Below, in pieces: positions 664-45,205 of a stretch of 53,041 nucleotides of DNA (positions are counted from its first letter, which is position 1; each line of letters starts with the position of its first letter). A program made the position numbers and the translations under genes. Source of the stretch: a virus; the IMG/VR virus record IMGVR_UViG_3300011415_000004; one strand, given 5' to 3'. Under the pieces are notes generated by a model. That model saw nothing but the letters and a program-made list of their open reading frames with translations. It had not been told where the DNA came from and ran no database searches.

Positions 664-702
664 CCAACCGGGGTTGACAACTCCGGGGGGATCCCGCATA
701 AT
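664..702 (+). promoter_or_regulatory. promoter-operator repeat P1 (TTGACA 674-679, 17-nt spacer, CATAAT 697-702)
   Basis: CCAACCGGGGTTGACAACTCCGGGGGGATCCCGCATAAT, nearly identical to the copies at 5843 and 11349. Confidence 0.7.
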
Positions 703-708
703 CACTAC

Positions 709-873
709 GTGACCACGTACCGAGTGACCAACCGCCGGGGCCGAGTCGTCGGCTTCGTCAGGGCCCAGGCCGACGGCCGGGTCCGGGCCTTCGACCTCAA
801 GGGGAAGGCCATCGCCACCTTCAACAAGGCGGTCGACGCGATGACCGCCGTCGAGATGGCGGCCGCACGATGA
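709..873 (+). CDS. hypothetical protein, probably leaderless (GTG 709)
   Basis: In frame with ORF 646..873. The GTG lies 7 nt after the -10 of P1, and the P1 promoter sits inside the longer ORF version. Confidence 0.5.
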   Translation: MTTYRVTNRRGRVVGFVRAQADGRVRAFDLKGKAIATFNKAVDAMTAVEMAAAR

Positions 874-1061
874 CCGCCGCCGCCACCGCGGACGACCTCA
901 TCGCCCACCTGATCGAACTGATCGCCCTGTTCGAGGAGGCCAAGGGCAACCACCCCGCCTTGGCCGAAGTGCGCGCCAAGATCGCCGCCGCCATGGACGA
1001 GGCCGAGATGCGCCTCATCGGCCTCGGCTGGGACGCCGAGAAGTTCTGGGCCGAACGATGA
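870..1061 (+). CDS. hypothetical protein
   Basis: ORF track. ATGA stop/start overlap with the upstream gene. Confidence 0.6.
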   Translation: MTAAATADDLIAHLIELIALFEEAKGNHPALAEVRAKIAAAMDEAEMRLIGLGWDAEKFWAER

Positions 1062-1243
1062 TCGCCGCCGAGTCCCCGGTCAAGGAGATCGAGCGTCACA
1101 CCGTCATCGCCACGGATCTCATCCGGGCGGCCGAGGAGCACGAGGCCGCCAGCCGTCGAAGGACCGCCAAGAACCTCCGACGTCGGGCCGCCGGGCACAA
1201 GGCCGCCGCGACTCGGATCGCCCGGCTACAGGGGTGGGTATGA
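1058..1243 (+). CDS. hypothetical protein
   Basis: ORF track. ATGA overlaps at both ends. Confidence 0.6.
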   Translation: MIAAESPVKEIERHTVIATDLIRAAEEHEAASRRRTAKNLRRRAAGHKAAATRIARLQGWV

Positions 1244-1404
1244 GCGCCCAGACCTTCGTCCTCCAGTCCCTTCTCGACGGTCACTTCCTCCCCGGCCAGT
1301 TCACCTGGGACGAAGCCCAGGCCGCCGCCGAGGCCGACGGCTTCGCTCGCGTCCGCCGTCTGGACGAAGTCCTGGCCGAGACCGGGAGGGAGGTGAGACC
1401 ATGA
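1240..1404 (+). CDS. hypothetical small protein (54 aa)
   Basis: Translated by hand (MSAQTFVLQSLLDGHF...). ATGA overlaps at both ends and third codon positions are GC-rich. Confidence 0.5.
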   Translation: MSAQTFVLQSLLDGHFLPGQFTWDEAQAAAEADGFARVRRLDEVLAETGREVRP

Positions 1405-1547
1405 GCACCATGACCGAGACCGAGACCCAGGAGATGACCTGGGAGGAGTCCGCCGACCTCGTCCAGTACGACGGGGCCGAGTACGTCCACGAGGCCACGG
1501 GCCGGATCTACCGCCCCGAGCCGACCGACACCATCGTCCTCCACTAA
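1401..1547 (+). CDS. hypothetical small acidic protein (48 aa)
   Basis: Translated by hand (MSTMTETETQEMTWEE...). ATGA overlap with the upstream gene. Confidence 0.5.
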   Translation: MSTMTETETQEMTWEESADLVQYDGAEYVHEATGRIYRPEPTDTIVLH

Positions 1548-1591
1548 CGTCGGAGGCTCACACCCACCCTCTGTCCGCATCGGGGGGTGAC

Positions 1592-1632
1592 ACGAGACCT
1601 CGGGGTTCCGTCGCATGGCTCCGAGGTCTCGT
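1592..1632 (+). terminator. 12-bp stem hairpin (ACGAGACCTCGG / CCGAGGTCTCGT, 17-nt loop)
   Basis: Perfect inverted repeat in the gap after the small-gene block, followed by a CTAACATC box at 1643-1650. Confidence 0.5.
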
Positions 1633-1643
1633 CGCGTCCGGAC

Positions 1644-1649
1644 TAACAT
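1644..1649 (+). promoter_or_regulatory. TAACAT box (class-2 'hairpin + TAMCMT' element)
   Basis: Fits TANNNT. Same context as 13282, 16602, 18444 and 19142. Confidence 0.3.
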
Positions 1650-1726
1650 CACCTTCGACGTGGCCGGGACCGCCGTGAGCGGGTGGCCGGGAGTCGGACC
1701 CACCCCACCGACCCAGGAGCACGACC

Positions 1727-1933
1727 ATGCAAGTCTCAACCGGCAACCTGTACCCCTCGACGCTGGAGGCCTTCAAGGCCGGAGTGAAGGCCGACGACCT
1801 CGTCCTTCTGAGCGGCCCGCCCGAGGCGATCGAGGCGGTCTCCGAGAGGGTCCGCCTCGGGGCCCGCGAGCAGGCGAACCGCAAGGCACGCCGAGCCGCA
1901 CAGAAGAAGGCGCGCCGCCGCAACCGGGGATGA
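1727..1933 (+). CDS. hypothetical protein, basic C-terminus
   Basis: ORF track. AGGAG lies 8 nt upstream of the ATG. Confidence 0.6.
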   Translation: MQVSTGNLYPSTLEAFKAGVKADDLVLLSGPPEAIEAVSERVRLGAREQANRKARRAAQKKARRRNRG

Positions 1934-2150
1934 TAGGGTGACGTCCAACGCACCGACGCGAAGCCACGGTCAGAGGCGATAGTCGGCATTGTGCGGATCA
2001 GGACGCCGGGAACATGGAGTTCCGTGGCCCTCGTGAGGGTGCCCCTCCTGGGAGACCAGGAGGCGGTCCCACCGAGGCGGCGACCCCGGCGGGGCTGAGC
2101 AGTAGCCTCACTGGGTGCCGCACGAAGCCCCCGCCCGACGCGTCCAGTCG

Positions 2151-2453
2151 ATGGACGAGATGGAGCAGGCGGGCGACTACTTCGGTCCGACCGATGAGGT
2201 CGACGCCGAGGGCAACGTCACCCGCCTCGGCGTCTGGTTCCTCCTGCCGATCCATGAGGGGGGTTCCATCTTCGAGCGGGTCACGGAGGGCTCCGGGCTT
2301 CACCGCGTGAGCGAACCGCCCTGGACGTTCCGGGAGTGCCCGGACGGCTCACTTGAGATCCGCGCCTCGATCCTCTGCGGCAAGACCGCCGACAACCCGG
2401 CGGGCTACTTCCACGGGTTCCTCAACGAGGGCAACCGCTGGACCTGGGACTAG
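2151..2453 (+). CDS. hypothetical protein
   Basis: In frame with ORF 2115..2453. I prefer the ATG at 2151 (MDEMEQ...). Confidence 0.55.
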   Translation: MDEMEQAGDYFGPTDEVDAEGNVTRLGVWFLLPIHEGGSIFERVTEGSGLHRVSEPPWTFRECPDGSLEIRASILCGKTADNPAGYFHGFLNEGNRWTWD

Positions 2454-2494
2454 GAGCCCAAAGACGAAGCGCGCGCCGAGATAGGATCCCCGCC

Positions 2495-2764
2495 ATGCCG
2501 GAGCGTCCTCGCGTCCATCCCAGGATGCCCATGGAGCAACTGGTGGACGTTGAGCGTCACCCTGTCCGGGGGGTCCTCCGCACCGTCCACGCCGAGGAGG
2601 GCGACACCCTCCCGATCCCGTGGGAGGTGAAGGCCGCCCTGGTGCTCCTCGCCGTCTTCGTCGTCGCGCTCACCGCGGCGGGCTTCTACTGGTCGATCGG
2701 GTTCGGTCTCCTCGGGCTCGCCGTCTCGACCCTCGTCGCGTCGATCCTCCTGGGCATGGACTAG
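2495..2764 (+). CDS. membrane protein (two hydrophobic helices)
   Basis: ORF track. The C-terminal half reads ALVLLAVFVVALTAAGFYWSIGFGLLGLAVSTLVASILLG. Confidence 0.6.
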   Translation: MPERPRVHPRMPMEQLVDVERHPVRGVLRTVHAEEGDTLPIPWEVKAALVLLAVFVVALTAAGFYWSIGFGLLGLAVSTLVASILLGMD

Positions 2765-4152
2765 TGGGCTTCGCCCGCGCCGCCAAGGGTGGCCGACGCC
2801 TCGACAGGAAGGACGCGCGGAGCGCCCACGCGCTCCCGGCCCAGACCGTCGGCAAGCCATACAAGGATGACTGGAGCATCGACCGGGCCATGAGCCAGGC
2901 GATGCTCAAGGTCATCCCCATCTTCCGGGCCGTCCACGTCATCGCGGACAACCAGGCTCGCCTCCCGTTCGCCGTCAACGAGGGTTCAGAGACGGGGCCC
3001 GAGATCCCCGGCCACGAACTCGTGCGGATCCTCAACCAGCGGGCCAACCCCGATGAGTCCGCCTACGCCTTCCGCTACCGCCTGTCCGCCCAGGTGCTCC
3101 TCTCACGGAAGGGCGCGTTCGTGGAGATCGTGAGGGACCGGGTCGGACGGATCCGCCACCTGTACCTCATGGACCCGCGCAAAACCGACCCGGTCGTCTC
3201 GAAGGCCGCGACCACCGCGACCCCGAAGGGCGGGGAACCGAAGGGCGTGGTCGACTACTTCGAGGTCAACCTCGGCCAGGGGGCGAAGGAGAAGCGCGAG
3301 CCCGACGAGGTCGCGTGGATCCGGCTCCCGCACCCGTTCGACATCTTGAAGGGCATGACGCCCCTTGAAGCCGCGGGCCTGACGATCGACATCGAGGTCC
3401 TTGCCCGGCTCTACAACCGGACCTTTCTCCAGAACGACGGTCGACCTGGCGGCATCGTCGGGGTGAAGGGTGACGTGGACGAGGACGTCGCGGACGAACT
3501 GGAGAGCCGGTTCAACGTCGGCACCCACGGGGCCGGTCGGATCACGGTCCTCGAAGCCGACGAACTCTCCTGGGTCGACACCGCCGTCTCCCCCCGTGAC
3601 GCCCAATACATCCAGGCACTCGCCGGGACGAAGGTCGACCTCCTCGGCGCGTTCGGTGTGCCCGAGTCGCTCGCCTACGGGAACGCCTCCCAGCGGACCT
3701 ATGACAACGTCGACGCGGAGCGGTACATCTTCTGGGAGTCCGCGATGCTCGGGCACCTCGCTCTCCTGGGTGACGGGCTCAACCACGCCGACGGTGAGGA
3801 GACGACGTTCTCCCACTTCGACACGAGCGGGGTTGACGTCCTCCAGCGCGTGGAGATTGCCCGCCGCGAGGAGATGCGAGCGGAGGTCGCCGCCGGGACC
3901 CGCACCCTCGACTCGTACCTGGAGGCGATCGGCGAGGACCCGGTCGGCACCGCCGAGGCCCGCTCCTACTTCCGGCCGATGGGCGAGGTCCCCTACGCCA
4001 CCGAAGGGGGTGGCACCCCGCCGACGTCCCTCGTCGCCACGACCGCGGCAGAGGCGGCCAAGGCGGCCGTGGAGGCCCTCGAAGGGAAAGACCGGGGGGT
4101 GGTGACCCCCTTTCGGTACAGCCCCCGTCGGGGGGCGACGGGGTCGACCTAG
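2764..4152 (+). CDS. portal protein (HK97-family type)
   Basis: In frame with ORF 2620..4152, with a GTG overlapping the upstream TAG. About 460 aa, downstream of TerL, and the sequence pattern is typical of Phage_portal proteins. Confidence 0.88.
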   Translation: MGFARAAKGGRRLDRKDARSAHALPAQTVGKPYKDDWSIDRAMSQAMLKVIPIFRAVHVIADNQARLPFAVNEGSETGPEIPGHELVRILNQRANPDESAYAFRYRLSAQVLLSRKGAFVEIVRDRVGRIRHLYLMDPRKTDPVVSKAATTATPKGGEPKGVVDYFEVNLGQGAKEKREPDEVAWIRLPHPFDILKGMTPLEAAGLTIDIEVLARLYNRTFLQNDGRPGGIVGVKGDVDEDVADELESRFNVGTHGAGRITVLEADELSWVDTAVSPRDAQYIQALAGTKVDLLGAFGVPESLAYGNASQRTYDNVDAERYIFWESAMLGHLALLGDGLNHADGEETTFSHFDTSGVDVLQRVEIARREEMRAEVAAGTRTLDSYLEAIGEDPVGTAEARSYFRPMGEVPYATEGGGTPPTSLVATTAAEAAKAAVEALEGKDRGVVTPFRYSPRRGATGST

Positions 4153-4276
4153 CCCCGGCTCGCCTGGGGACCCGTTCCGCTTCGTCCGCAAGGCGATAAG
4201 CCAGGCCCTCGACGCCGCGGAGCGCGACGTCTACCAGTCGGTAAAGAGGGCGACCGAGGCGAGCGAGGCCCGCACG

Positions 4277-5080: not shown

Positions 5081-5093
5081 CATCCTGGAGAGG

Positions 5094-5579
5094 ATGCCCG
5101 AGGGCCTCACGCGCTCCGAACAGGTCGACTGGTTCGTCAACAAGTGGGGGAAGGTCGAGAAGCGGGTGCCCGCACCGCTGGAGTACGACGCGGCAGGGAA
5201 ACTGCTCCCGGCGCGCTACATCTCGACCGAGATCGACCGGGTCTTCACCATGGAAGGGATCGACGGGCTCACCGCGCATGACACGATCATCCGGAAACTC
5301 GACGCCCTGTTCTCATCGCGCCCCGACGTGGCCGACAAGATCCGTCGAGTCGGCACGATGGAGGGACTCAGGATCTACTCGGCTCCGAGCGTCAAGGGCC
5401 AGGCCTCTTATCTCGACTACCTCTCGTTCCGTGCGTCCGTCCACTCGACGGTCGAGGCCGCGGGGAACCTCGTGGGCCCGCTCAAGGAGAAGGGGTGGCT
5501 TATGGGGAGTACGCCCGCCCGTTCGCCCGCCTTCTCGGCCACGCCGTCAACGAGGCCCTCGATGAGGCGGCCCGGGTAG
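5094..5579 (+). CDS. hypothetical protein; the last ~28 codons look off-frame
   Basis: In frame with ORF 4974..5579, using the ATG after the MuF stop. The tail WLMGSTPARSPAFSATPSTRPSMRRPG is S/T/P/R-rich. Confidence 0.5.
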   Translation: MPEGLTRSEQVDWFVNKWGKVEKRVPAPLEYDAAGKLLPARYISTEIDRVFTMEGIDGLTAHDTIIRKLDALFSSRPDVADKIRRVGTMEGLRIYSAPSVKGQASYLDYLSFRASVHSTVEAAGNLVGPLKEKGWLMGSTPARSPAFSATPSTRPSMRRPG

Positions 5580-5593
5580 CCTCGGTCGGATGA
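5495..5593 (+). CDS. small ORF, or the -1 frame continuation of the previous gene
   Basis: AAGGAGAA lies 4 nt upstream of GTG 5495. It reads VAYGEYARPFARLLGHAVNEALDEAARVASVG and its stop forms an ATGA overlap with the next gene. Confidence 0.4.
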   Translation: MAYGEYARPFARLLGHAVNEALDEAARVASVG

Positions 5594-5856
5594 TCGGAGC
5601 CAACGCGTGCACGTCGTGCAAGCACCTCGACCGGGAGAAGGCGACCGACACCGAAGACGAGGCCTTCTGCTCATCGTTCCCTGAGGGGATCCCCGAGAAC
5701 ATCTGGGCGGGAGATCACGCGCACCGCGTGCCGATCGGTGACGAGGAGACGTGGGAGGCGATCCCCGGCTGGGAGGACGACTTCGAGGACTACGTGGAGG
5801 TCTACGTCGCGCTCAACAGTAAGGAGCCCGAGGGCCTGCCCACCAACCGGGGTTGA
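5590..5856 (+). CDS. hypothetical protein (CxxC, acidic)
   Basis: ORF track. Its TGA stop is part of the TTGACA -35 box of P2. Confidence 0.65.
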   Translation: MIGANACTSCKHLDREKATDTEDEAFCSSFPEGIPENIWAGDHAHRVPIGDEETWEAIPGWEDDFEDYVEVYVALNSKEPEGLPTNRG

Positions 5857-5881
5857 CAACTCCAGGGGGATCCGGCATACT
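5843..5881 (+). promoter_or_regulatory. promoter-operator repeat P2 (TTGACA 5853-5858, 17-nt spacer, CATACT 5876-5881)
   Basis: CCAACCGGGGTTGACAACTCCAGGGGGATCCGGCATACT. ATG 5888 lies 7 nt after the -10. Confidence 0.7.
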
Positions 5882-5887
5882 TGAGGC

Positions 5888-6637: not shown

Positions 6638-6662
6638 ACTGGGGTGGAGAGGAGCATCACCC

Positions 6663-7312: not shown

Positions 7313-7321
7313 CCTCCGGCC

Positions 7322-11348: not shown

Positions 11349-11387
11349 CCAACCGGGGTTGACAACTCCGGGGGGACCCCGCATACT
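11349..11387 (+). promoter_or_regulatory. promoter-operator repeat P3 (TTGACA 11359-11364, 17-nt spacer, CATACT 11382-11387)
   Basis: CCAACCGGGGTTGACAACTCCGGGGGGACCCCGCATACT. ATG 11394 lies 7 nt after the -10. Confidence 0.7.
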
Positions 11388-13281: not shown

Positions 13282-13287
13282 TACCAT
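13282..13287 (+). promoter_or_regulatory. TACCAT box (class-2 element; CATCCCCGGTTGAGAT is shared with 19145-19160)
   Basis: Fits TANNNT and sits directly after a hairpin. The 16-nt match to the copy at 19145 is exact. Confidence 0.35.
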
Positions 13288-13298
13288 CCCCGGTTGAG

Positions 13299-13800: not shown

Positions 13801-14418
13801 ATGACCACTCACCCCGAGGAGACCGCGATGGAGCAACCCCCCACCGAGCACGTCTGGCTCAACCTCGGTTGCGGAACCCACCGGGCTCCGGCCCCGTGGT
13901 GGAACGTCGACACCGTCGTCCGGAAGGGGCCCGACGTCGCGGCGATCGACACCGTCGACCCGGACCAGGTGATCGACCCGAACAGGCCCTTGCCCTTCGC
14001 GGCCGGATCGTGCGACCGGGTCTTCCTCTCCCACGTCCTCGAACACGTCCCGTGGGAGGCGGTGCCCGGCCTCCTCATCGACGTCCGGCGGATCGCCGTC
14101 GCGGAGGTCCTCATCGTCGGCCCGGATTGCTACCGGACGATCGAGGCCTACAAGGCGGGCCTTGAGCCGTGGTCGATCGTCCAGTCCGTGCTAGAGCACA
14201 AGGACTATCCCGATGACATGATCGAGTGGCCGGGCGCGCCGCATCACTGGAACTGTCACGAGGCCCGGGTGATCGAGGCGCTCAACCGAACCGGGTGGCA
14301 CGCGGTTCCGGTGCTCGATCACGGGATCCTCCGGGACTGGCCGACGGTGGCCTTCAACCCCCGGTGGCAGTTCGCCGTCATGGCCCGCTCGGACGGACGG
14401 GCGGTGCTGGACCGATGA
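13801..14418 (+). CDS. class I SAM-dependent methyltransferase
   Basis: Motif I (VWLNLGCGTH) and DRVFLSHVLEHV, typical of Methyltransf_11/23 proteins. Confidence 0.7.
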   Translation: MTTHPEETAMEQPPTEHVWLNLGCGTHRAPAPWWNVDTVVRKGPDVAAIDTVDPDQVIDPNRPLPFAAGSCDRVFLSHVLEHVPWEAVPGLLIDVRRIAVAEVLIVGPDCYRTIEAYKAGLEPWSIVQSVLEHKDYPDDMIEWPGAPHHWNCHEARVIEALNRTGWHAVPVLDHGILRDWPTVAFNPRWQFAVMARSDGRAVLDR

Positions 14419-15230
14419 GGCTGGAGGACGTGAGCGTCCCGCCGCCCGAGGAGAGTGCGGCGGACTGGAACGAAGCGGGGGTGGTGATCCTCCCGGGCTT
14501 CTTCCCGGATGCCCTCCTCGACGCGTACGCGGGGGAGTGGGAGGAGGCCAACGGCTACCACGGGCTACAGGGCGGGGAGACGGCCTGGATCATCTCCGCC
14601 GACCGGGTCGGAGGCTGGGACGACTGCACCCCGTACATGAGGCATGAGGCGCTCCGTCAACTCCTCACCTACGCGCCCCTCGCCCGGGTCCTGGAGGGCC
14701 TCCTCATCGGTGAGCCCGCCGGGGTCCACCTCAACCTGACCGGCTGGGTGACGACCGAGCGCGACTGGCACCAGGACTCCTACCTCAACGAGCCCGAGGT
14801 GGGCGACCGCTACGCCGCGATCTGGATCGCGCTCGGGGACATCCACCCGGACTCCGGCCCCTTCCAGTACGTGCCGGGCTCGCACCGTTGGCCCCAGGTC
14901 ACGCGCGAACTCATCGGCCACCACGTCAACCTCGCGGACCCGTCCTGGCCCAAGCACTCCGAGGACATCCTCTCGCCGGTCTTCGAGGCGGAGATCCGCG
15001 AGCGCGGGGCCGAGGTAGTCACCCACCTCCCGAACCGGGGGGACCTGCTGATCTGGCACGGGCGACTCCTCCATCGGGGATCGAAGGCGAACGTCCCGGG
15101 CGCGTACCGCCCGGCGCTGATCGCCCACTACTCGGGGATCCACCATCGCTCCTCGATGCCGCCCGCGATCCAGACCCTCTCCAACGGCGGGTGGTTCTTC
15201 CCCATCGGCTCGCTCACCCCGGTCCGCTGA
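14415..15230 (+). CDS. PhyH-family Fe(II)/2-oxoglutarate dioxygenase
   Basis: In frame with ORF 14226..15230, with an ATGA overlap. HxD motif in DWHQDSY and a distal His in LIWHGRLLHRG. Confidence 0.65.
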   Translation: MRLEDVSVPPPEESAADWNEAGVVILPGFFPDALLDAYAGEWEEANGYHGLQGGETAWIISADRVGGWDDCTPYMRHEALRQLLTYAPLARVLEGLLIGEPAGVHLNLTGWVTTERDWHQDSYLNEPEVGDRYAAIWIALGDIHPDSGPFQYVPGSHRWPQVTRELIGHHVNLADPSWPKHSEDILSPVFEAEIRERGAEVVTHLPNRGDLLIWHGRLLHRGSKANVPGAYRPALIAHYSGIHHRSSMPPAIQTLSNGGWFFPIGSLTPVR

Positions 15231-15232
15231 CC

Positions 15233-16360
15233 GTGAAGATCGGTGTCGCGACGAACGACTGGAGCCGGTCGTACCTGGACGGCCACGGGCGGCCGACCTA
15301 CGGCGGGGCCGGGTGGTATCGGCTCGGGCTCCCGGCTCGCCACCTCCGGGCCCAGGGCCTCGACGTGGTCGAGGGGACGCTGGCCTGGGCGAACGATGCG
15401 AAGCGGTTCGGGATCCGCGAGTGGCCCGGCCATGGTGACGACCCGGAGAACCCGATGATCCACTGGGACGTCGACCTCGTCGTCCTTCAACGGTGGATGT
15501 TCGCCTCGGTCGCGTTCGAGACGCCGACGGCGCGGCGCTCCGGGCAGGTCGTGGTCCAGGACGTGGACGACCACTTCTGGGCCCTCGACCCGGCGAACCG
15601 CGCCCAGCGGGCGACGGACCCCCGGCTCAACAAGGTCGAGAACCGGGACCACTACCTGGCGGGGATCAAGGCCGCCTCGGCGGTGACGGTGTCGACCCCC
15701 TACCTGGCGAGCGAACTCCGCCGGGCCGGGGTGCGCGTCCCCATCCACGTCCTCCCCAACCACCTCGACGTCGAGGCCTTCGCTCAGGTCCGCCAGGCGA
15801 GGCCCTGGCGGGCGTCTCCCATCGTCGGATGGGTCGGGGCGACCCAGTACCGCTCCGGGGACGTCGAGACGCTACGGGGCTTCCTGGGCCCGTTCCTCAA
15901 CCGGCACGACCTGACCGCCTACCACGGGGGCCACGTCGAGGGGGCCGCCACGTTCGCCGCCCAGGCCCGGCTCCAGCCGGAGCGGGTTAGGCACGCCCCC
16001 CTCGCGCCGATCGAGACGTACCCCTTCCTGTTCCGTGGCCTCGACGTCGGCCTGGTCCCCCTCCGGAACGTGCCCTTCAACCAGGCGAAGTCGGCCATCA
16101 AGGGCCTGGAGTACGCGGCCGCCGGGGTGCCCTTCGTGGCGGCCGACCTCCCCGAGTACGTGAGGCTCCACGCGGACCGCGGCATCGGCCGCCTGGCGCG
16201 GCGGACCCGGGACTGGACCCGCAACCTGGAGGCCCTCCTCGACCCGATCGTTCGGGCGGAGGAGGCGGCCAAGAACCTCGCCGCCGTCGAGGCCCTTGAC
16301 ATCCGGCGGGGGGTCCACCAGTGGCGGGACCTCTACCTCGAACTCCTCGCAACCGCTTGA
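15233..16360 (+). CDS. GT-B fold glycosyltransferase (GT4-like)
   Basis: In frame with ORF 14888..16360, GTG start. The C-terminal KGLEYAAAGVPFVAADLPEY resembles the GT4 donor-binding motif. Confidence 0.65.
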   Translation: MKIGVATNDWSRSYLDGHGRPTYGGAGWYRLGLPARHLRAQGLDVVEGTLAWANDAKRFGIREWPGHGDDPENPMIHWDVDLVVLQRWMFASVAFETPTARRSGQVVVQDVDDHFWALDPANRAQRATDPRLNKVENRDHYLAGIKAASAVTVSTPYLASELRRAGVRVPIHVLPNHLDVEAFAQVRQARPWRASPIVGWVGATQYRSGDVETLRGFLGPFLNRHDLTAYHGGHVEGAATFAAQARLQPERVRHAPLAPIETYPFLFRGLDVGLVPLRNVPFNQAKSAIKGLEYAAAGVPFVAADLPEYVRLHADRGIGRLARRTRDWTRNLEALLDPIVRAEEAAKNLAAVEALDIRRGVHQWRDLYLELLATA

Positions 16361-16572
16361 CCTCAACCGGGGGTGTCGCTTAGGGCCAGGGGCCTACACG
16401 GCTCCCAGTCCCCCGAACCGGACGGCCTTCGACTCCCTCCGGGGATCGACAAGCCGGGACGTCGGAAGAAGTCGAGACCCCGGCCATTACTGGGCCAGCC
16501 GGGGAGCCGCCTCCCGGAGGGTCCGTCCATCCTCCAGCCGGGAGGAGCAGCAGAGTGCGAGAGGACGGGCGT

Positions 16573-19141: not shown

Positions 19142-19147
19142 TAACAT
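19142..19147 (+). promoter_or_regulatory. TAACAT box (class-2 element)
   Basis: GTGCTAACATCCCCGGTTGAGAT. Exact 16-nt match to 13285-13300. Confidence 0.35.
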
Positions 19148-19180
19148 CCCCGGTTGAGATCCCCACCCCCAAGGAGCGCG

Positions 19181-22650: not shown

Positions 22651-23403
22651 GTGGCACTCGACCGAGATGGTCAGTACGAGGTCGGGGGCCTGCTCATGGG
22701 GCCGACGACCGGCTACGTCGTGGACACCGTCCTCGGGCTCGGGGGGATCCCTGAGATCCGCACGGTTGACCGCCCCAAGTCACACGATCACGGGGGGTGG
22801 GCAGGCACCGACCTTCTGGAGCCCCGGGAGATCGTGATGGCCGTCGGCCTCGACGGGGAACTCGACGCCTCCGCCTACGAGACGCTCATCACGAACCTCG
22901 GCGCGGTGATGCGGCCGCGGTCCGACGAGATGGCGTTCCGCTACAAGCGGTTCGGTCGGATCCGTCGCCTCGGCGCAAGGCCTCGCGGGTTCATCCTCCC
23001 GTGGGACGACGACTTCTATCTGGGAGCGGGCCGCGCCGCCCTCCGCTTCCAGTGTCCGGACCCGGTGATCTACTCCGACGAGACCGACGAGACGGGGCCC
23101 TCCTCGGGCACGTTCCCGGTGACGAACGACGGGAACTTCCCGATCTGGCCGGTGGTCGAGACGGCGGCCGGTGGGGACATCACCCTCACGAACGCGACGA
23201 CCGACGAGACCGTGGAACTCCTCGATCTGTCGGGCGCGGCGGTCATCGACTTCGCCGCCCGGACCGTCTTCGTGGGGACCTCCGACGAGTACGCCGCGGT
23301 CCAGCCGAGTCCCGACTGGTGGAAGGTCCAACCGGGGTTGAACTCCCTGACATTCTCGGCCTCCGCTACGATCACGTTCCGACACGGCTGGGCGACGGGC
23401 TAG
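22651..23403 (+). CDS. distal tail protein (Dit-like)
   Basis: First gene after the tape measure, 250 aa. Siphovirus tail-family pattern. Confidence 0.6.
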   Translation: MALDRDGQYEVGGLLMGPTTGYVVDTVLGLGGIPEIRTVDRPKSHDHGGWAGTDLLEPREIVMAVGLDGELDASAYETLITNLGAVMRPRSDEMAFRYKRFGRIRRLGARPRGFILPWDDDFYLGAGRAALRFQCPDPVIYSDETDETGPSSGTFPVTNDGNFPIWPVVETAAGGDITLTNATTDETVELLDLSGAAVIDFAARTVFVGTSDEYAAVQPSPDWWKVQPGLNSLTFSASATITFRHGWATG

Positions 23404-30159: not shown

Positions 30160-30387
30160 TTGGGGTGGCGAGCCTGCCTCGCCTGTGAGACCGAGTTCAA
30201 GGAGGGACCCTGCCTCTCGTGTGAGGGGCCGGGGGTCCCTGGCCGCCTAGTCGACTTCTGCCCGCACGGGAACCGTCGACCGTTCCGGGGGTGGCCGTGC
30301 CCCCGATGCCGCGACGAGTTCGTGGAGTTGCATCGGTCGATCCGCCGGATCATGCCTAGACACGTCAACCCAGGTAGTCCATACTGA
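30160..30387 (+). CDS. Cys-rich zinc-ribbon-like protein (TTG start)
   Basis: ORF track. CLAC...CLSC...CPHG...CPRC, with GC-rich third positions. Confidence 0.4.
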   Translation: MGWRACLACETEFKEGPCLSCEGPGVPGRLVDFCPHGNRRPFRGWPCPRCRDEFVELHRSIRRIMPRHVNPGSPY

Positions 30388-30437
30388 CCGGAACGTCTCG
30401 CCCGGTTGAACTTGGGGACCGGATCCGGGACGTTTCC

Positions 30438-30470: not shown

Positions 30471-30562
30471 CGCGTCACGGGGGGTTGACAGGCGTGAGAC
30501 AATGAAGGTGGAGGCGATGAGAACCCTCCCGCAACCCTCACCCCAAGGAGGCATAAGCGACC

Positions 30563-31545: not shown

Positions 31546-31769
31546 CGCGCCGTCGTGCGGCCGGGATCCTCCGCCGCCGCCGGGACTACCTGACGAAGGT
31601 CGCCGTCGGGAAGCGGTCCTCGTCCTTGCCGACCCGCCACGAGGAGGAGGAGATCGAGGCCCTGGAGGTCGCGCTCTGGGTCCTCGACTCAACCCCGGTT
31701 GCGACTGTCACACCCCTGGGAGTAAGGTCCCCCCAACCCCTCGCCACCCAAGGAGAACCCCATGGCTGA
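31542..31769 (+). CDS. hypothetical basic protein
   Basis: MTRRRAAGILRRRRDYLTKV... with an ATGA overlap to the +1 frame of the previous gene. Confidence 0.4.
   Translation: MTRRRAAGILRRRRDYLTKVAVGKRSSSLPTRHEEEEIEALEVALWVLDSTPVATVTPLGVRSPQPLATQGEPHG
31690..31728 (+). promoter_or_regulatory. promoter repeat P9 (TTGCGA 31699-31704, 18-nt spacer, TAAGGT 31723-31728)
   Basis: The CAACCCCGGTTGCGAC core is related to P1-P8. A CCACCCAAGGAG box and ATG 31762 lie downstream. Confidence 0.5.
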
Positions 31770-34826: not shown

Positions 34827-34999
34827 TCGTCGGCTCCTTCGAGTACGTCCGGCGGGACTACGTCCCCCGCAAGGGACAGAAGCCGCGCCACGACTGGGTC
34901 CGCAACCACCGGGGCCATAAGGCCATCGTCGGCCAGGAGGTGGCGACCCTCGTGGATGAGATCGACCGGCTTCGATCGGCTCCACTCATCCGGGGTTGA
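34811..34999 (+). CDS. hypothetical protein
   Basis: GTG start in frame with ORF 34541..34999. Its TGA stop lies inside the P4 -35 region. Confidence 0.45.
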   Translation: MATRVVVGSFEYVRRDYVPRKGQKPRHDWVRNHRGHKAIVGQEVATLVDEIDRLRSAPLIRG

Positions 35000-35024: not shown

Positions 35025-35075
35025 GACCAGTGAGGAGCACCCCGCTCCTCGACTCACCCCAAGGAGAAGACCTCA

Positions 35076-37646: not shown

Positions 37647-38062
37647 AGCGACACCGGCCACCCAAGCGAGGGAAGCCACCCCAGCGCGACGTCGAGAAGA
37701 CGCGGGCCTGGGAGCGCCGGTCGAGGAAGCCGATCGCCTCCGAGTCGAAGAAGCACCGGGACCGACGCTCCGAACGCGAGGAGGTTCGCCGACAGGTGAT
37801 CGACCGCGACAAGGGATGCCGGGCTCGGGGGATCCTCCCGGGCCGGTGCGGGATCGTGTCGATGGACCGGGCCCCACTGGAGGTCCATGAGACGGTCCCT
37901 CGTGGACGCTGGGCGGTCTCGTACCTGGTGCCCGAGGTGTGCGTGGCCCTCTGCCAGATCCACCACGACTACGCCACCGAGCACCCAACCGAGGCCGAGG
38001 CCGTGGGGCTCCTGGCGAAGGCTCCGCAACCGGGGTTGACTAAGCCGGGCCGCCCGTCGTAA
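37643..38062 (+). CDS. HNH endonuclease-like protein
   Basis: ATGA overlap with the upstream gene. DRDKGCRARG...LEVHETVPRG...CVALCQIHHDY. Confidence 0.55.
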   Translation: MKRHRPPKRGKPPQRDVEKTRAWERRSRKPIASESKKHRDRRSEREEVRRQVIDRDKGCRARGILPGRCGIVSMDRAPLEVHETVPRGRWAVSYLVPEVCVALCQIHHDYATEHPTEAEAVGLLAKAPQPGLTKPGRPS

Positions 38063-38538: not shown

Positions 38539-38539
38539 C

Positions 38540-39585: not shown

Positions 39586-39651
39586 CCGTCTACGATCCGT
39601 AGCCCACCCACTTCCTCGCCACCGAAGGACGACGAACATGAGCCACGCGAC

Positions 39652-40053: not shown

Positions 40054-40120
40054 CCCACGACCACCCGGGGTGATATCGTCCCGGGTTGACGATCCCCACC
40101 CCCCAGGAGAACCCGCCGAG

Positions 40121-40375
40121 ATGGCCTCACGATCCGGAAGCCGCGCACCATCCAACCCGAAGACGAAGGCCCAGCGCCTGACGCGTGTCGGTGAACTCAC
40201 CGAGCGGATCACGGCGCGTCTGGAGGGCGTCGAGAACCTCGCGGCGGACCGGAACCGGATCGTGAAGGAACTCATCGAGAAGGATGGCGCGACCTACAAC
40301 GAGATCGGTGAGGCGTGCGGCACGTCCGCCCAGGCGATCCACAAGGCCCTCCACAAGCGGGCCGCGAGGACGTAG
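40121..40375 (+). CDS. HTH DNA-binding protein (sigma region-4-like)
   Basis: In frame with ORF 40010..40375. ATYNEIGEACGTSAQAIHKAL. CCCCAGGAG box upstream. Confidence 0.55.
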   Translation: MASRSGSRAPSNPKTKAQRLTRVGELTERITARLEGVENLAADRNRIVKELIEKDGATYNEIGEACGTSAQAIHKALHKRAART

Positions 40376-40442
40376 GCGGAACCTCCTCGACTCGTCAACC
40401 CCAGGTGGTTACCCTGGGTTGTCGACGGGCAAAGGAGGGATC

Positions 40443-40835
40443 ATGCTCGCCACCCGAAACCACTTCACCAGTGACGAGGCCTGTCGGCTCGCCGGGGTCT
40501 CGTACCGCCAGGCCGACTATTGGGTCCGGCTCGGGCTCATCGAGCCCATGGTCCAAGCCACCGGCTCCGGCTCTCGCCGTCGCTTCTGCCTGGAGGACGT
40601 CGTGGCCCTCCGGGTCGTCCACCTCCTCATGCGGCACCGGCTCCCCCAGGAGACGATCCGCGAGGTCCTCGGGAGCCTCGGGGCGGACAAGCCCCTCATC
40701 TGGATCCGGGACGGGCGCGCCACCTCGGGGGACGCGTTCGACTTCCTCGGGGAGGCCGACCACCTCAAGGGCGACGAGGTCGTCCTCGTCTTCTCCCCGG
40801 CCGCCATGCTGGAGGAACTCCACAACCGGGGTTGA
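40443..40835 (+). CDS. MerR-family HTH protein
   Basis: FTSDEACRLAGVSYRQADYWVRLGLIEP...GSGSRRRFCLEDVVALRVV. Confidence 0.7.
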   Translation: MLATRNHFTSDEACRLAGVSYRQADYWVRLGLIEPMVQATGSGSRRRFCLEDVVALRVVHLLMRHRLPQETIREVLGSLGADKPLIWIRDGRATSGDAFDFLGEADHLKGDEVVLVFSPAAMLEELHNRG

Positions 40836-40861
40836 CCGGGAGGCCGTGAGGATGGTACGGT
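40823..40861 (+). promoter_or_regulatory. promoter repeat P6 (TTGACC 40832-40837, 18-nt spacer, TACGGT 40856-40861)
   Basis: CAACCGGGGTTGAC core. The leader carries CCTCACCCCAAGGAGG before GTG 40901. Confidence 0.5.
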
Positions 40862-40900
40862 CCCCACCGTCAAGCCAACCCTCACCCCAAGGAGGCCCCA

Positions 40901-41478
40901 GTGGCCCGAGTCACCCACGTTGAGAAGGCCCGCAAGGACCAGGGCACCTGTTCCAAGTGCGGGGACGCCATCCCCAAGGGAGCGCCCTACCGGCACGCCT
41001 CGCCCGGCTTCCGAGGCTCCAAGATCGTCCGGTGCATGAAGCCCCCGAGTGTGCGTTCCGCACGAGCGACCTGACGACCTCACACCTGGCCGAGGTGTAC
41101 GCCGCCCAGGAGGCCGCCGCCGATGGCCTCTACGAGGACGGCCTCGACCTCGAAGGGATCAAGTCCCTCCTCCAGGACGTGGCCGACGCCGCCCGCGAGG
41201 TGGCCTCCACCTATGAGGAGGCGGCCGAGGCGATGGGTGAGGCGGGCTACGAGAACCAGGAGCGAGCCGACGCGCTGGAGTCCTACGCCGACGAACTCGA
41301 AGGCTTCGAGGCCGACGCCGACTGTGAGGAGTGCGAAGGCACCGGCCACCTTGAAGCGGACCCCGCCGCCGGGGAAGACGCCGAACTCCCCGAGTGCCTC
41401 GTGTGCGACGGTACCGGCCACGACCTCGACGCCGTCCGCGAGGAGGCCCAGGCGGCCCTCGATGGGCTGGAGGTCTGA
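40901..41478 (+). CDS. double zinc-finger protein (CxxC N-terminus; two CxxCxGTGH knuckles at the C-terminus); needs a -1 frame change at C5 41042-41046
   Basis: The frame from GTG 40901 stops at 41074. ORF 40957..41478 continues naturally as ...RCMKPPECAFRTSDL... if one C is re-read. Confidence 0.5.
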
Positions 41479-41480
41479 CC

Positions 41481-42500: not shown

Positions 42501-42772
42501 TGGCTAGGGGTGCGTGGAAGCCACCCGTCCAGAAGCCGAGGGAGCCCCGCACCGCGCGCCTCAAGCGCGCCGACCAGATCCTCAAGGGCGAGGAGATCCG
42601 CCTCTCCACGAAGGGCATCGTTGCTCTCGTGACCGACGTGTCGACCGACGAACGCGGCCGCCGGGTTCTCGCCACCGACAGACTGGGCGAGCGGGTGCTC
42701 TGGCCTGACGCCCAGATCCTCGTCCTCGATCCGGAGCCACCGTCCAAGACCGACCAAAGGAAGCCGCGATGA
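42500..42772 (+). CDS. hypothetical basic protein
   Basis: In frame with ORF 42104..42772. The ATG shares its A with the upstream TGA. Confidence 0.55.
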   Translation: MARGAWKPPVQKPREPRTARLKRADQILKGEEIRLSTKGIVALVTDVSTDERGRRVLATDRLGERVLWPDAQILVLDPEPPSKTDQRKPR

Positions 42773-43104
42773 CCGCACCCGTCGATGACATGGAGACGGA
42801 GATTGAGCGTCTCACCGCCGAGGTTCACCGCCTCGACACCAAGAATGCCGACCTCCAGACCGAATGCGAAGACCTCAAGGCCGACAACGACCGTCTCATA
42901 GAGGAGGCCGTGGCGGCCCAAATCGAACTGGAGGACCTGGGGGACGTCGGCCACGACCTCTCCTTCGAGGCGGTCGATGACGCCATCCAGGAGGCCCATG
43001 CCCGAGCCCATCACGTCGGCCACTGGCGATCGTGTCCGAACCTCGTATGCCGCGGGCTGGAGGAGTGGATGCTCCACGCTCGCAAGGAGATCGGGCTCCG
43101 GTGA
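42769..43104 (+). CDS. coiled-coil protein
   Basis: ORF track. ATGA overlap with the upstream gene. Confidence 0.6.
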   Translation: MTAPVDDMETEIERLTAEVHRLDTKNADLQTECEDLKADNDRLIEEAVAAQIELEDLGDVGHDLSFEAVDDAIQEAHARAHHVGHWRSCPNLVCRGLEEWMLHARKEIGLR

Positions 43105-43421
43105 CCGTCACTGTCGAGGAGGTCGCGCTCAAGGCCCAGGAGCGCCTCGGGGTCGACGCGGTCGCGTGGGCCCTGCTCCAGGAGACGACCCGGACGGTGA
43201 TCCTCCGGGCGTGCCTCGGCAAGGTCCCGATGGGGCTCCACGCGGCGAAGTCCGTGGAGCGCGTGCACCGGGCCGAGGGCGAGCGTCAGACGGCCTACCG
43301 CTGCCCGTTCTCCCCGCCGGACGCCCACTGGCATATCGGCCACGTCCCGTCGATCGAGACGGTGGCGACGATCGCCCTCGCGGTGCGGGACCTCCACGGA
43401 AACCTTCCCAACCCGGGTTGA
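43101..43421 (+). CDS. hypothetical protein
   Basis: GTGA overlap with the upstream gene. Its stop lies inside the P7 -35 region. Confidence 0.55.
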   Translation: MTVTVEEVALKAQERLGVDAVAWALLQETTRTVILRACLGKVPMGLHAAKSVERVHRAEGERQTAYRCPFSPPDAHWHIGHVPSIETVATIALAVRDLHGNLPNPG

Positions 43422-43446
43422 CAGTTCCGCGAGGATCCCCCATACT
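43408..43446 (+). promoter_or_regulatory. promoter-operator repeat P7 (TTGACA 43418-43423, 17-nt spacer, CATACT 43441-43446)
   Basis: CCAACCCGGGTTGACAGTTCCGCGAGGATCCCCCATACT. The leader carries CCACCCCAAGGAG before GTG 43478. Confidence 0.7.
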
Positions 43447-43477
43447 GGACCTCGAACCACCACCCCAAGGAGAAGCC

Positions 43478-43756
43478 GTGCCCACCATCACGAACTACCT
43501 GACCGAGAAGTTCCTCCAGCCCGAGGAGGCTCAGGCCCTCATCGAGGAGCACGGGGAGCACGCGGGGGTCGTCCTCGTGACGAGGCTCGCGGACGGGACG
43601 ACCGTTACCGACGTTCCCACGATCCGCCGGATCGTGAGGGTCGCCCGGGTGTACGGCCTCGTTCTGGCCGACCTGGCCGAGTTCCGCGCCGCCAAGGGTT
43701 GGGCGATCCCGCTGGAGGCGAAGGACCTCGTCTACTACGAGCCCGACCGTGGGTAG
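43478..43756 (+). CDS. hypothetical protein
   Basis: GTG in frame with ORF 42977..43756, 7 nt after the AAGGAG box. Confidence 0.55.
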   Translation: MPTITNYLTEKFLQPEEAQALIEEHGEHAGVVLVTRLADGTTVTDVPTIRRIVRVARVYGLVLADLAEFRAAKGWAIPLEAKDLVYYEPDRG

Positions 43757-43831
43757 GGGCCAGGGCTCCCACGTCGACCTCCGCCGCCTGGCAGACTCAA
43801 CCCCCGTGGAACCCTCACCCCAGGAGAGCCC

Positions 43832-44506
43832 ATGATCGAGGTCCGCTTCCGGCCCTTCACCACCTGGCCCCAGGTCGAGACCCGCGACCGGAAGCGGGCG
43901 CTGTTCCACGCCTCGTGGTCCTCGACGCTCGCGGGTCTCAACGCCGAACTCCGAGCCCTCGACGCGAAGGACGTGGTGATCGAGACCGCCCACACCCAGC
44001 GCGACATCCGTAACGACGGCTGGCCGCGCTCCGATGCCAGAGTCCCACCCATGCCCGGCGTCATCCTGTCCTTCGGATCGAAGCACGGGCCGCTCCGCTA
44101 CCTGACCGACGCCTTCTCCCAAGGTGGCTACCAGCGGGGCTCGGGCGGCATCGGTGGCTCCTGGATGCCGGGCTGGCAGGCCAACCTTCGAGCGATCGCC
44201 CTCGGGCTCGAAGCCCTCCGCGCCGTCGACCGCTACGGGGTGTCCCGACGCGGCGAGCAGTACCGGGGCTGGAACGAACTCCCGAGCGGGATCGAGATGG
44301 GCCCGGCCATGACGATCGAGGAGGCCGCGACGATCCTGGAGGGATACTGGGGCGTCATGGTGCCCTTGCCCGACTGGACCCCCGAGCACGTCGAGGACCT
44401 CTACCGCCGCGCCGCCAAGGAGACCCACCCCGATACGGGCGGGGACCCCGACGAGTTCCGCCGAGTGGCTACGGCTCACGCGCTCCTCAAGGACTACGTC
44501 CGATGA
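43832..44506 (+). CDS. J-domain (DnaJ-like) protein
   Basis: The C-terminal LYRRAAKETHPDTGGDPDEFRRVATAHALL contains the HPD motif. CCCTCACCCCAGGAG box upstream. Confidence 0.7.
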   Translation: MIEVRFRPFTTWPQVETRDRKRALFHASWSSTLAGLNAELRALDAKDVVIETAHTQRDIRNDGWPRSDARVPPMPGVILSFGSKHGPLRYLTDAFSQGGYQRGSGGIGGSWMPGWQANLRAIALGLEALRAVDRYGVSRRGEQYRGWNELPSGIEMGPAMTIEEAATILEGYWGVMVPLPDWTPEHVEDLYRRAAKETHPDTGGDPDEFRRVATAHALLKDYVR

Positions 44507-44787
44507 GGCTCGCCTCGAAGATCGCCCTCCTCCTAAGCCCGGACCTCCACGCCGTGGCGGCCAGGCTCCAGAAGGCCGACAGGAGCCTCCAGGCGGCCCA
44601 GGACGGCCTCGCCGGGGTCATGGGTGGTGTCACCGCCCGGACGTGCGACCCCGAGGTCCTGGCCGTCGTGAAGGAGGCGGGTCTCGATCTGGCCGCCGGA
44701 CGCTTCGACGTGATCGGCGCGAGGGCGGAGCTCACCGGCCGTGGACCCGAGGCCCTCCTCCCTGACGACCCACCCGCGCCGCGGTAA
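44503..44787 (+). CDS. hypothetical protein
   Basis: ORF track. ATGA overlap with the upstream gene. Confidence 0.55.
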   Translation: MRLASKIALLLSPDLHAVAARLQKADRSLQAAQDGLAGVMGGVTARTCDPEVLAVVKEAGLDLAAGRFDVIGARAELTGRGPEALLPDDPPAPR

Positions 44788-44824
44788 CGTCTCCGGGATC
44801 GACCGCCCCACCAGGAGGCCACCC

Positions 44825-44977
44825 ATGAAGGCATCGGCAGGAGAACTCGGGGACCGCGCTCCCCGCGAGCGCGGCAAGAACCGAGTCGTCCCCCAGGCCG
44901 TGGCCGAGTCCGCGGCGCTCAAGGAGGCCCGTGAGGCCGCCTCGAAGCCGAAGGGCCGCGCCAAGAAGAAGGCGTAG
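44825..44977 (+). CDS. small basic protein (50 aa)
   Basis: CCAGGAGG 6 nt upstream of the ATG. In frame with ORF 44741..44977. Confidence 0.45.
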   Translation: MKASAGELGDRAPRERGKNRVVPQAVAESAALKEAREAASKPKGRAKKKA

Positions 44978-45140
44978 CCCGAGACCCTCCCGGCCCCCGA
45001 GCGGGGGACCACGGCCTAGCCTCACAGTCCGGAACGGCCGCCGGGCGTCGACCTGACGGGGTCGGTAGGGGCGGGTTGCTCACCCTTCGGGGCGGGCCTC
45101 GTGGATCCCCGCTCGGGGGCCGGGTCGCGCTCGGGGGCGA

Positions 45141-45161
45141 ACTACCTAGAAACTAGATAGT
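45141..45161. promoter_or_regulatory. AT-rich palindrome ACTACCTAG-AAA-CTAGATAGT (candidate operator or origin element)
   Basis: 9-nt arms with one mismatch. It is the most AT-rich spot I saw in the genome, 6 nt upstream of the P8 block. Confidence 0.4.
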
Positions 45162-45166
45162 TGGCA

Positions 45167-45205
45167 CCAACCGGGGTTGACAACGTCACACCCAGGCCTC
45201 ATACT
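45167..45205 (+). promoter_or_regulatory. promoter repeat P8 (TTGACA 45177-45182, 17-nt spacer, CATACT 45200-45205)
   Basis: CCAACCGGGGTTGACA core. ATG 45211 lies 6 nt after the -10, implying a leaderless mRNA. Confidence 0.7.

Follow-up and report, generated by a model that had tools for sequence, protein, structure and literature searches.

What are the elements of about 39 bp that recur across a 53,041-nucleotide (nt) stretch of viral DNA, IMG/VR record IMGVR_UViG_3300011415_000004, hereafter the window? A first-pass annotation made from the sequence had described nine or more near-identical copies between positions 664 and 45205 and read them as promoters combined with the binding site of a dimeric regulator. 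We find that the window and at least four related genomes share a set of such elements, each joined to a conserved dyad, and we consider it reasonably probable that they are promoters of the host primary sigmaA type with an embedded operator for a phage regulator. Four related contigs, each referred to below by a short label that also prefixes its coordinates, served for comparison. Relative R (IMGVR_UViG_3300031228_000008; 42 kb; loci L003/L093/L163) is syntenic with the window, and its proteins are 40-82% identical in amino acids (aa) to the window's. Three more came from a protein search with gp40121, a small helix-turn-helix (HTH) protein of the window: L188 (a contig of a metagenome-assembled genome (MAG) at NCBI), L190 (JGI) and L192 (Logan, 20 kb).

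Recurrence and anatomy of the elements

The anatomy of the elements, their statistics and their conservation across genomes are directly observed. The 16-mer core CCAACCGGGGTTGACA has 18 matches in the window at three mismatches or fewer where 0.6 are expected, a count reached in none of 100 shuffles, and the commonest 11-mer of the genome is the core of this same 16-mer. It is exact at 664, 5843, 11349 and 45167, with one mismatch at 43408, two at 38026 and 40822 and three at 34986, and the copy at 31690 is an inverted-centre variant, CAACCCCGGTTGCGA-N18-TAAGGT. A scan for sigma-70 promoters that was blind to the motif (TTGACA, a spacer of 16-18 nt and TATAAT) returned exactly nine sites in 53 kb against about 1.9 expected, all on the + strand (674, 5853, 11359, 30357, 34996, 38036, 43418, 45177 and 50616), and every one of the nine carries the repeated motif; two more copies, 40832 (TTGACC-18-TACGGT) and 31699 (TTGCGA-18-TAAGGT), fall just under the scan threshold. 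The recurrent family that had been announced is thus borne out. All 11 elements lie on the + strand with a start codon 5-177 nt beyond the -10 box, and they have TTGACA-like and TAnnnT-like boxes 17-18 nt apart, within the 16-19 nt usual for the sigma-70 type. For an in silico case, this makes a strong argument that the elements would be sigma-70/sigmaA-type promoters.

The flank upstream of the -35 box is conserved, as had been seen, but it is part of a stronger and commoner feature that the first-pass annotation missed, as it did the leaderless layout described below. Together with the TTG of the -35 box, this flank forms the dyad CAACC-N2-GGTTG, or (T/C)CAACC-NN-GGTTGA with its own flanks (12-14 bp). 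At one mismatch or fewer, CAACCNNGGTTG occurs 28 times in the window and 25 times in R, with 1.2 expected in each, and CAAC-N4-GTTG has 15 sites in the window against 0.18 expected. The claim that conservation far exceeds what sigma recognition needs is borne out in silico. Judged against codon shuffles, the dyad is also in excess within coding sequence, with 4 perfect copies against 0.02 (the last 45 nt of genes excluded) and 12 against 0.51 at one mismatch or fewer; inside genes and at non-promoter intergenic sites it is enriched 20-fold or more. At nine promoters the dyad overlaps the -35 box, its right arm supplying the TTG and its centre lying near -38.5, and at the two promoters with weaker -35 boxes (PE and P10 below) it lies within the spacer. 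With two registers over core promoter elements and with stand-alone sites besides, it looks like an operator, and most simply like a repressor site. The centre at promoters is mostly GG, at -39 in 30 and at -38 in 34 of 36 copies. Other dyads were considered and set aside, none being enriched outside promoters: GTTG-A-CAAC is limited to four promoter copies, CCGGGG-TTGACAA-CTCCGG to class I copies (by eye), and the palindrome GGGGATCCCC has 2 sites against 1.2 expected.

A second box lies in the spacer, where the first-pass annotation had placed a conserved palindrome with a GGATCC-type core. That core is present at the copies listed for it, GGATCC/GGGGATCCCC at 664, 5843, 34986 and 43408 and GGGGGGACCCC at 11349, although the listing (P1, P2, P4, P7 and P3) fits only if 31690 is dropped from the numbering. 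The conserved palindrome did not hold up: the consensus across genomes is the class I box TCCRGGRGGAYCC, which within the window is limited to promoters, and GGATCC is absent from R and L192, whose boxes read GGAGGACCCC or GGGAGACCCC. Counts of GGATCC are 55 in the window, 18 in L188 and 15 in L190, as against 0 in the 42 kb of R and 0 in the 20 kb of L192. Some family members seem to avoid a BamHI-type restriction site, which would account for GGACC in place of GGATCC in the boxes of R and L192. A class II box, (C)GTCACACCC, is common to P4, P9 and several promoters of the relatives, and on sequence the two boxes split the promoters into two subclasses. The layout is not that of promoters of the MerR type, with a dyad in a spacer of 19-20 nt and a cognate MerR gene; the spacers here are 17-18 nt and the box is not a conserved dyad.

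Four promoters lead straight into coding sequence. P1 (664..711; + strand, as are all the elements) has the dyad CAACCGGGGTTG at 665-676, -35 TTGACA at 674-679, a class I spacer and -10 CATAAT at 697-702, and GTG 709 is the first codon of a 54-aa open reading frame (ORF). P2 (5843..5890) has the dyad, -35 TTGACA at 5853-5858, a class I spacer and -10 CATACT at 5876-5881, before ATG 5888 of a 118-aa ORF. P3 (11349..11396) has the dyad, its -35 at 11359-11364, the class I spacer GGGGGGACCCC and -10 CATACT at 11382-11387, before ATG 11394 of a 90-aa ORF upstream of the capsid gene. P9 (45167..45213) joins the dyad and -35 TTGACA to the class II spacer CGTCACACCC and -10 CATACT at 45200-45205, before ATG 45211 of a 69-aa ORF. 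At all four, the -10 (CATAAT or CATACT) is followed 5-6 nt on by a GTG or ATG that is the first in-frame start of its ORF, the ORFs have coding-type codon usage, and there is no room for a Shine-Dalgarno (SD) sequence before the start; this implies that the mRNAs predicted from P1, P2, P3 and P9 would be leaderless. Leaderless mRNAs are common in actinobacteria, and the actinobacterial type of leaderless promoter, with ATG or GTG 5-7 nt from the -10, is found at these four and at the promoter of a ribbon-helix-helix (RHH) gene considered below. A promoter was counted as leaderless only where no SD and start codon followed further downstream. The same layout occurs in the relatives, at R13857, R16117 and R35042, at 14429 and 16453 in L188, at 14102 and 15213 in L190 and at 16081 and 17956 in L192. 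We also observed CTAG-rich, AT-richer flanks right upstream of two non-orthologous promoters, P9 of the window (45150-45166, CTAGAAACTAGATAG) and R35042 (CTAGATTCTAGATAGG); such flanks could be an UP-like element or reflect exchange of a larger promoter module.

The remaining promoters have leaders of 25-50 nt that end in a strong SD, CACCCCAAGGAG; that of PE is about 170 nt. P4 (31688..31728) has the dyad CAACCCCGGTTG with a CC centre, -35 TTGCGA at 31699-31704, the class II spacer CTGTCACACCCC and -10 TAAGGT at 31723-31728, and its 33-nt leader with SD ends at ATG 31762. In P5 (34986..35024), CATCCGGGGTTGACG and the class I spacer GGGGGATCCCC precede -10 TAAACT, and a leader with SD runs to ATG 35076 of a DUF932 gene. 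P6 (38026..38065) has the dyad, -35 TTGACT, an 18-nt spacer and -10 TAAGAT, and reaches ATG 38099 through the conserved leader CCTCGTAAGC...CACCCCAAGGAG. P7 (40822..40861) has the dyad, -35 TTGACC at 40832-40837, an 18-nt spacer and -10 TACGGT at 40856-40861, followed by a leader with SD and GTG 40901. P8 (43408..43446) carries the perfect 12-bp palindrome CAACCCGGGTTG, -35 TTGACA, a class I spacer and -10 CATACT, and its leader with SD ends at GTG 43478. The TGA within TTGAC serves four copies as the stop codon of the upstream gene, just as the first-pass annotation had it: g5590-5856 at P2 (protein ending ...TNRG), g34811-34999 at P5 (...LIRG), the MerR-like gene g40443-40835 at P7 (...HNRG) and g43101-43421 at P8 (...PNPG).

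PE and P10 had been listed among weaker relics of the element, near 30365 and 50625, and both prove to be predicted promoters with the dyad in the spacer. PE (30357..30385; TAGACA-17-CATACT, dyad CAACCCAGGTAG at 30366-30377) stands in a 400-bp gap between lysis and early genes, and its architecture is kept in R at R739 (TGGACA-17-CATACT). P10 (50616..50645; TCGACA-18-TACGAT, dyad CAACCCCGGTTT at 50626-50637) is located 32 nt 5' of the RHH gene 50678.

Some features of the leaders deserve mention in their own right. The sequence CCTCGTAAGC is common to the leaders of P6, P7 and their orthologues. An extended translation-start motif, ACCCTCACCCC(A)AGGAG, lies 5' of many genes (30534, 38925, 40878, 43811, 47491 and the P5 and P6 leaders) and recalls the 'start-associated sequences' of Cluster K mycobacteriophages. 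GTG 40901, reached via the SD after P7, opens a 57-aa ORF with a CxxC motif (40901-41074) that overlaps the next predicted gene (41032-41478) in a different frame, and the gene structure there is ambiguous.

Conservation in relatives and sites outside promoters

In the related genomes the proteins are only 40-80% identical to those of the window. L188, L190 and L192 all have the promoter elements, and in R CCAACCGGGGTTGAC is kept at no fewer than eight + strand sites, several of them orthologous and three with a class I spacer, CATAAT and a leaderless ATG. We aligned five sets of orthologous promoter regions, and in all five the main island of conservation consists of the dyad and the -35 box, amid diverged coding DNA; the sets for P4 and P5 show a conserved spacer box too. 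Since these islands stand amid diverged flanks, recent duplication cannot be the sole cause of the likeness among copies.

The elements are confined to a narrow family. High densities of the dyad (3-5 per 10 kb) are limited to loci with homologues of gp40121 and of the RHH protein gp46047; across 49 other high-GC loci the median is 0. When public viral and metagenome collections were scanned strictly for the motif, only one relative contig and one chance match, in a Planctomycetales MAG, came up, and the motif was found in none of about 180 loci of distant relatives that share capsid, topoisomerase or terminase genes. A full-text literature search found the motif sequences in no paper, and the phage family is likewise absent from the searchable literature. 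Two distant relatives have repeats of their own. L161 (IMGVR_UViG_2930248008_000005), whose topoisomerase-like protein is 64% identical, has a different intergenic repeat with 13 + strand copies between 3503 and 19086, in which a variable GC-rich hairpin is followed by GGTGGCCGCCAGGGCCA and then by an SD and start codon. L090 has six copies of CGTGGGGGATCC within 250 bp (5431-5672), similar to the GTGGGGA half-site of the window's RHH promoter.

Outside the promoters, one conserved site had been listed by the first-pass annotation as a relic near 47478: the dyad CTCAACCCAGGTTT (47477..47490, + strand) comes after the small terminase stop codon and before the SD of g47515, and it is kept at the same position in R, L188 and L190, four genomes with the window. 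The site CATCCCCGGTTG(AGA) (13285..13296, + strand) follows the capsid gene and its hairpin and has an ortholog at R32130, and a twin (19145-19156) follows the predicted major tail gene. Within genes, a perfect dyad with no -10 box stands at 23329..23340 (+ strand), and other perfect intragenic dyads occur at 13860, 28447 and 35974. The listed relic at 16357 is indeed a decayed copy (16355..16383, + strand; TTGACC-17-TTAGGG with the dyad CAACCGGGGGTG in its spacer), its ortholog being the perfect leaderless promoter R35042. At 30481 the motif GGGGGGTTGACA is present but has no -10 box, and at 30393 the weak relic yielded nothing. Three inverted-centre dyads, CTCAACCCCGG, lie within unrelated genes (9478, 17446 and 31688) in one shared frame, reading Ser-Thr-Pro-(Val/Asp), where the DNA motif may constrain the protein sequence.

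The last two relics, near 40086 and 40410, turn out to be clusters of dyad-like sites beside the HTH gene, and such clusters flank that gene on both sides in all five genomes. Just 5' of the gene there is a pair of dyad-like, hairpin-capable sites (40066..40096, + strand), with equivalent pairs in all four relatives. Between the HTH and MerR genes stand tandem dyads, GTCAACCCCAGGTGG-TTACCCTGGGTTGTCGAC (40393..40430, + strand), a layout kept in L188, L190 and L192, while R has one perfect CCAACCGGGGTTGG there. Half-site variants CAACG and CAACT occur in L192.

Candidate regulators and competing explanations

What follows on where transcription starts, which proteins bind and in which direction they regulate is predicted from DNA and protein sequence. 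In the account that we favour, the primary (sigmaA/sigma-70-type) RNA polymerase of the host would read the elements as about 11 transcription units of a one-strand actinophage genome of about 52.9 kb, and the dyad would serve as operator for a small, dimeric DNA-binding protein of the phage. By competing with RNA polymerase, this protein would turn down all phage promoters at once. The best candidate for this binder appears to be gp40121, whose gene is flanked by the dyad clusters; its targets would be the dyad TCAACCGGGGTTGA and the tandem sites at 40393-40430. A second factor probably binds the spacer box, and for class I this may be gp46047, which could also bind GTGGGGAC-TACAC-TCCCCAC.

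The protein gp40121 has 84 aa (40121..40375, + strand), with a long helix followed by a C-terminal HTH, and an AlphaFold model (predicted local distance difference test, pLDDT, 88) gives a 40-residue helix and then the HTH. The protein search with it yielded 36 homologues, several of which sit on contigs about 50-55 kb long, and the recognition helix SEQAIHKAF is almost invariant in 31 of its homologues. Its similarities to sigma region 4, namely Sigma70_r4 Pfam hits and top Foldseek matches that are not significant, all fall below threshold, and we treat the possible kinship as a lead only.

The RHH gene (46047-46400) has its own leaderless promoter (46026..46400 with the gene, + strand), in which the -10 box TACACT (46034-39) lies between the arms of an inverted repeat, GTGGGGA/TCCCCAC. 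L188 has this bracket as well, and R and L192 have variants of it. Its GTGGGGA half-site resembles the class I spacer box, although the likeness (GGGGAY) is short for a genome of 69% GC. Because its own promoter is bracketed in this way, gp46047 seems the best candidate for the binder of the class I box, which lends some support to the earlier suggestion that an RHH protein may bind the spacer.

The first-pass annotation had named HTH, RHH and MerR proteins as possible regulators. The first two fare well, since all five genomes encode gp40121 and gp46047; R keeps every element but lacks an orthologue of MerR (40443), which appears unlikely as the binder. The second RHH protein (50678) was found besides the window in R only, the other loci stopping before its expected place. 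A related-locus search with gp40121 and the RHH protein returned nothing.

Several points tell against a shared operator of this kind. The near-consensus promoters would be expected to work without any factor, and since the same promoter type precedes structural and early genes, timing is not explained by promoters alone. Pfam and PHROGs scans, which covered most predicted proteins and in part those of tail and lysis at about 22.6-29.2 kb, found no integrase or classical immunity cassette, so that the purpose of global repression is puzzling. The GG bias of the dyad centre is not needed by a symmetric binder, and may reflect polymerase contacts or shared descent instead. Foldseek found nothing significant for gp40121 (best E-value 0.6), and gp40121 and the RHH protein co-occur equally with the motif, so that co-occurrence does not distinguish them. 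As to the leaderless starts, an ATG or GTG with a long ORF may follow a -10 box by chance in GC-rich DNA, and look-alikes of this sort occur at 35030, R11994 and 12008 in L188, each with an SD and start codon downstream.

In a more specific form, which we think rather unlikely, gp40121 would be a dimeric mimic of sigma region 4, and the operator two inverted -35-like half-sites (GGTTGA). An equally speculative corollary is that gp40121 competes with sigmaA region 4 at every phage promoter and forms a roadblock at non-promoter copies. If this were true, a single protein would provide a genome-wide switch for a lytic-looking phage, and the spacer boxes, through an RHH or other factor, would set promoter classes.

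To the same limited degree we credit the opposite sign of regulation, in which the extended -35 is a positive element and a phage factor on the dyad, again with gp40121 as candidate, recruits or re-targets host RNA polymerase. This could occur by class II-type activation or by a mechanism resembling sigma appropriation; the gp40121 HTH weakly resembles sigma region 4. The fixed place of the dyad, with its centre near -38.5, and the GG centre in 30-34 of 36 copies do suggest a directional constraint, JGI labels two gp40121 homologues 'RNA polymerase specialized sigma subunit', and many structures of sigma region 4 stand among the top Foldseek matches, beside the Sigma70_r4 hits in Pfam; but every one of these similarities to sigma factors is below threshold. 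Moreover, boxes and spacing that are already near consensus need no activator, many dyads have no promoter nearby, and a dyad in the spacer, as in PE and P10, would be odd for an activator unless it were MerR-like, whose spacers would be 19-20 nt and not 17-18 nt.

We give a slightly smaller chance to plain strong promoters whose extra conservation stems from duplication, gene conversion or recombination among copies, as promoter-plus-gene cassettes or 'morons', with no dedicated regulator. Much in the distribution of copies would fit: P2 equals P3 even into the first codons (GCATGACAGAG), genes behind equivalent promoters are often unrelated (a 69-aa ORF at W45211 in the window and a 263-aa ORF at R16162), there is turnover of copies (R has nothing equivalent to P1-P3, and R35042 is decayed in the window at 16355), and the copies at W45167 and R35042 share the CTAG-rich upstream flank though they are not orthologous. 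Against this, the element is the top conserved island at orthologous sites of five genomes whose flanking proteins are about 50% identical, the dyad is enriched at least 20-fold in genes and at non-promoter intergenic sites, two promoters hold it within the spacer, and there are two conserved classes of spacer box.

That the dyad works in the RNA of read-through transcripts, whether by forming a small hairpin, as a processing site or as part of a terminator, seems to us very unlikely. The genes are co-directional, so upstream transcripts would include the element; the paired sites 5' of the HTH gene can form hairpins of 7-12 bp in all five genomes, and several sites outside promoters fall in the gap from a stop codon to the SD that follows. 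A lone dyad, however, gives just a 4-bp stem with a 4-nt loop, there is no Rfam match, no T-tracts follow the sites, a terminator scan gave no terminator-like sites on the + strand, and the tight register with the -35 box is a property of DNA. We dismiss as least probable of all a mobile miniature repeat or recombination linker unrelated to transcription, the case that the first-pass annotation had named as fatal to its own proposal: the many copies, some turnover between genomes and a frequent place at gene-cassette boundaries would suit it, but the whole unit is only 39 bp, we saw no target-site duplications, element-end inverted repeats or transposase, the copies are always co-oriented with genes in fixed register to start codons and hold orthologous positions in diverged genomes, and other collections are without the element except in relatives.

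Genome setting, known systems and significance

The first 123 bp of the window recur unchanged at its end (1-123 and 52919-53041), so we take it to be a circularly closed assembly of about 52,918 bp; the gene for the large terminase crosses the junction, from 52081 onward and on to 632. GC content is 67-72% across the whole window, and gene calling based on codon usage places essentially all genes on the + strand. After the large terminase come portal, a MuF-like protein, a tail-fibre-like protein and capsid, then predicted tail genes including an 858-aa tape-measure candidate, lysis genes and the 400-bp gap. The early genes that follow include DUF932, a replication initiator, an Rpf-like transglycosylase, a topoisomerase-like protein, the two RHH proteins, the HTH protein, the MerR-like protein and the small terminase. 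A weak methyltransferase-like gene (a sub-threshold Pfam hit) and a PhyH-family dioxygenase-like gene (13801-15230) stand together between the capsid and the structural-region genes that follow it, an unusual place for such a pair.

The Pfam and PHROGs scans, within the coverage given above, found no sigma factor, WhiB or ParAB, and no repressor of about 180 aa. Rfam covariance models gave no match in the window at gathering thresholds, and no tRNA genes were found. Near-identity DNA searches of 50,697 phage records returned no relevant match. Capsid and portal are about 40-50% identical in aa to those of Gordonia and Brevibacterium phages, and the nearest isolate phages reach at most about 53% for capsid and about 42% for portal. 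The genome is GC-rich and has leaderless genes and an Rpf-like domain, from which we infer that the host is probably an actinobacterium.

The first-pass annotation had likened the elements to stoperators. In Cluster A mycobacteriophages (L5, Bxb1) and in Streptomyces R4-like phages, stoperators are a short motif repeated more than 20 times genome-wide, at promoters, in intergenic gaps and in genes, and they presumably serve genome-wide silencing by one phage protein (PMC9283540; PMC10276819). The likeness holds loosely. The window has 28 dyads at one mismatch or fewer, above the 20 or more sites expected of such a system, with eleven at promoters, several in gaps between stop codon and SD (13285, 19145 and 47479) and many inside genes. 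Stoperators, however, are asymmetric 13-mers (13-14 bp) whose orientation follows transcription, whereas the site here is a symmetric dyad with centres in both orientations. Nine of its eleven promoter copies lie over the -35 box and the other two in the spacer. Stoperator phages are, moreover, temperate, with an integrase or partition system and a monomeric repressor of about 180 aa whose two domains are an HTH and a stoperator domain, while neither such a repressor nor an integrase was found among the window's scanned proteins.

A different parallel is offered by the Cluster O mycobacteriophages (Corndog and others), for which 8-9 SigA-like promoters are strongly predicted. Some of these are leaderless, transcription beginning (+1) at the first codon, and a dyad-symmetric repeat, TGTTCGGNNNCCGAACA, to which no function is ascribed, is scattered over the genome in more than 30 copies (PMC4351075). 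The window shares with these phages several SigA-like promoters, some leaderless, and a genome-wide dyad repeat. The sequences and the phages are unrelated, and the Cluster O promoters and 17-bp palindromes are separate as far as that paper states (PMC4351075), whereas in the window the dyad is fused to every promoter.

On the sequence evidence, then, the window holds what reads as a real, conserved and family-specific set of elements for which 'promoter-operator unit', the term of the first-pass annotation, is the best description, and regulation of this kind is already known in phages. A further precedent is phage phiC31, whose conserved inverted repeats (CIRs), bound by the c repressor, we take to be a palindromic operator at many sites of an actinophage, some at early promoters. 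phiC31 differs in being temperate, its repressor known, and in having early promoters that depart from the sigma-70 consensus. RHH repressors such as CopG, Arc and omega bind operators placed over the -35 or -10 box of the promoter of their own gene, and the RHH gene 46047, with a leaderless promoter whose -10 is bracketed by GTGGGGA/TCCCCAC, a putative binding site, has a similar arrangement.

Among the few phage schemes that place one motif across a whole genome, the window would contribute one whose operator is symmetric and joined to the -35 box. At 39 bp the promoters are short; they are also near consensus and naturally insulated, and if active in cultivable actinobacteria they could serve as expression parts with a cognate regulator. 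For an uncultivated family of actinobacterial phages represented by at least five genomes, the eleven promoters, the leaderless ones among them, the shared operator and the two spacer classes together make up a complete and testable transcription map.

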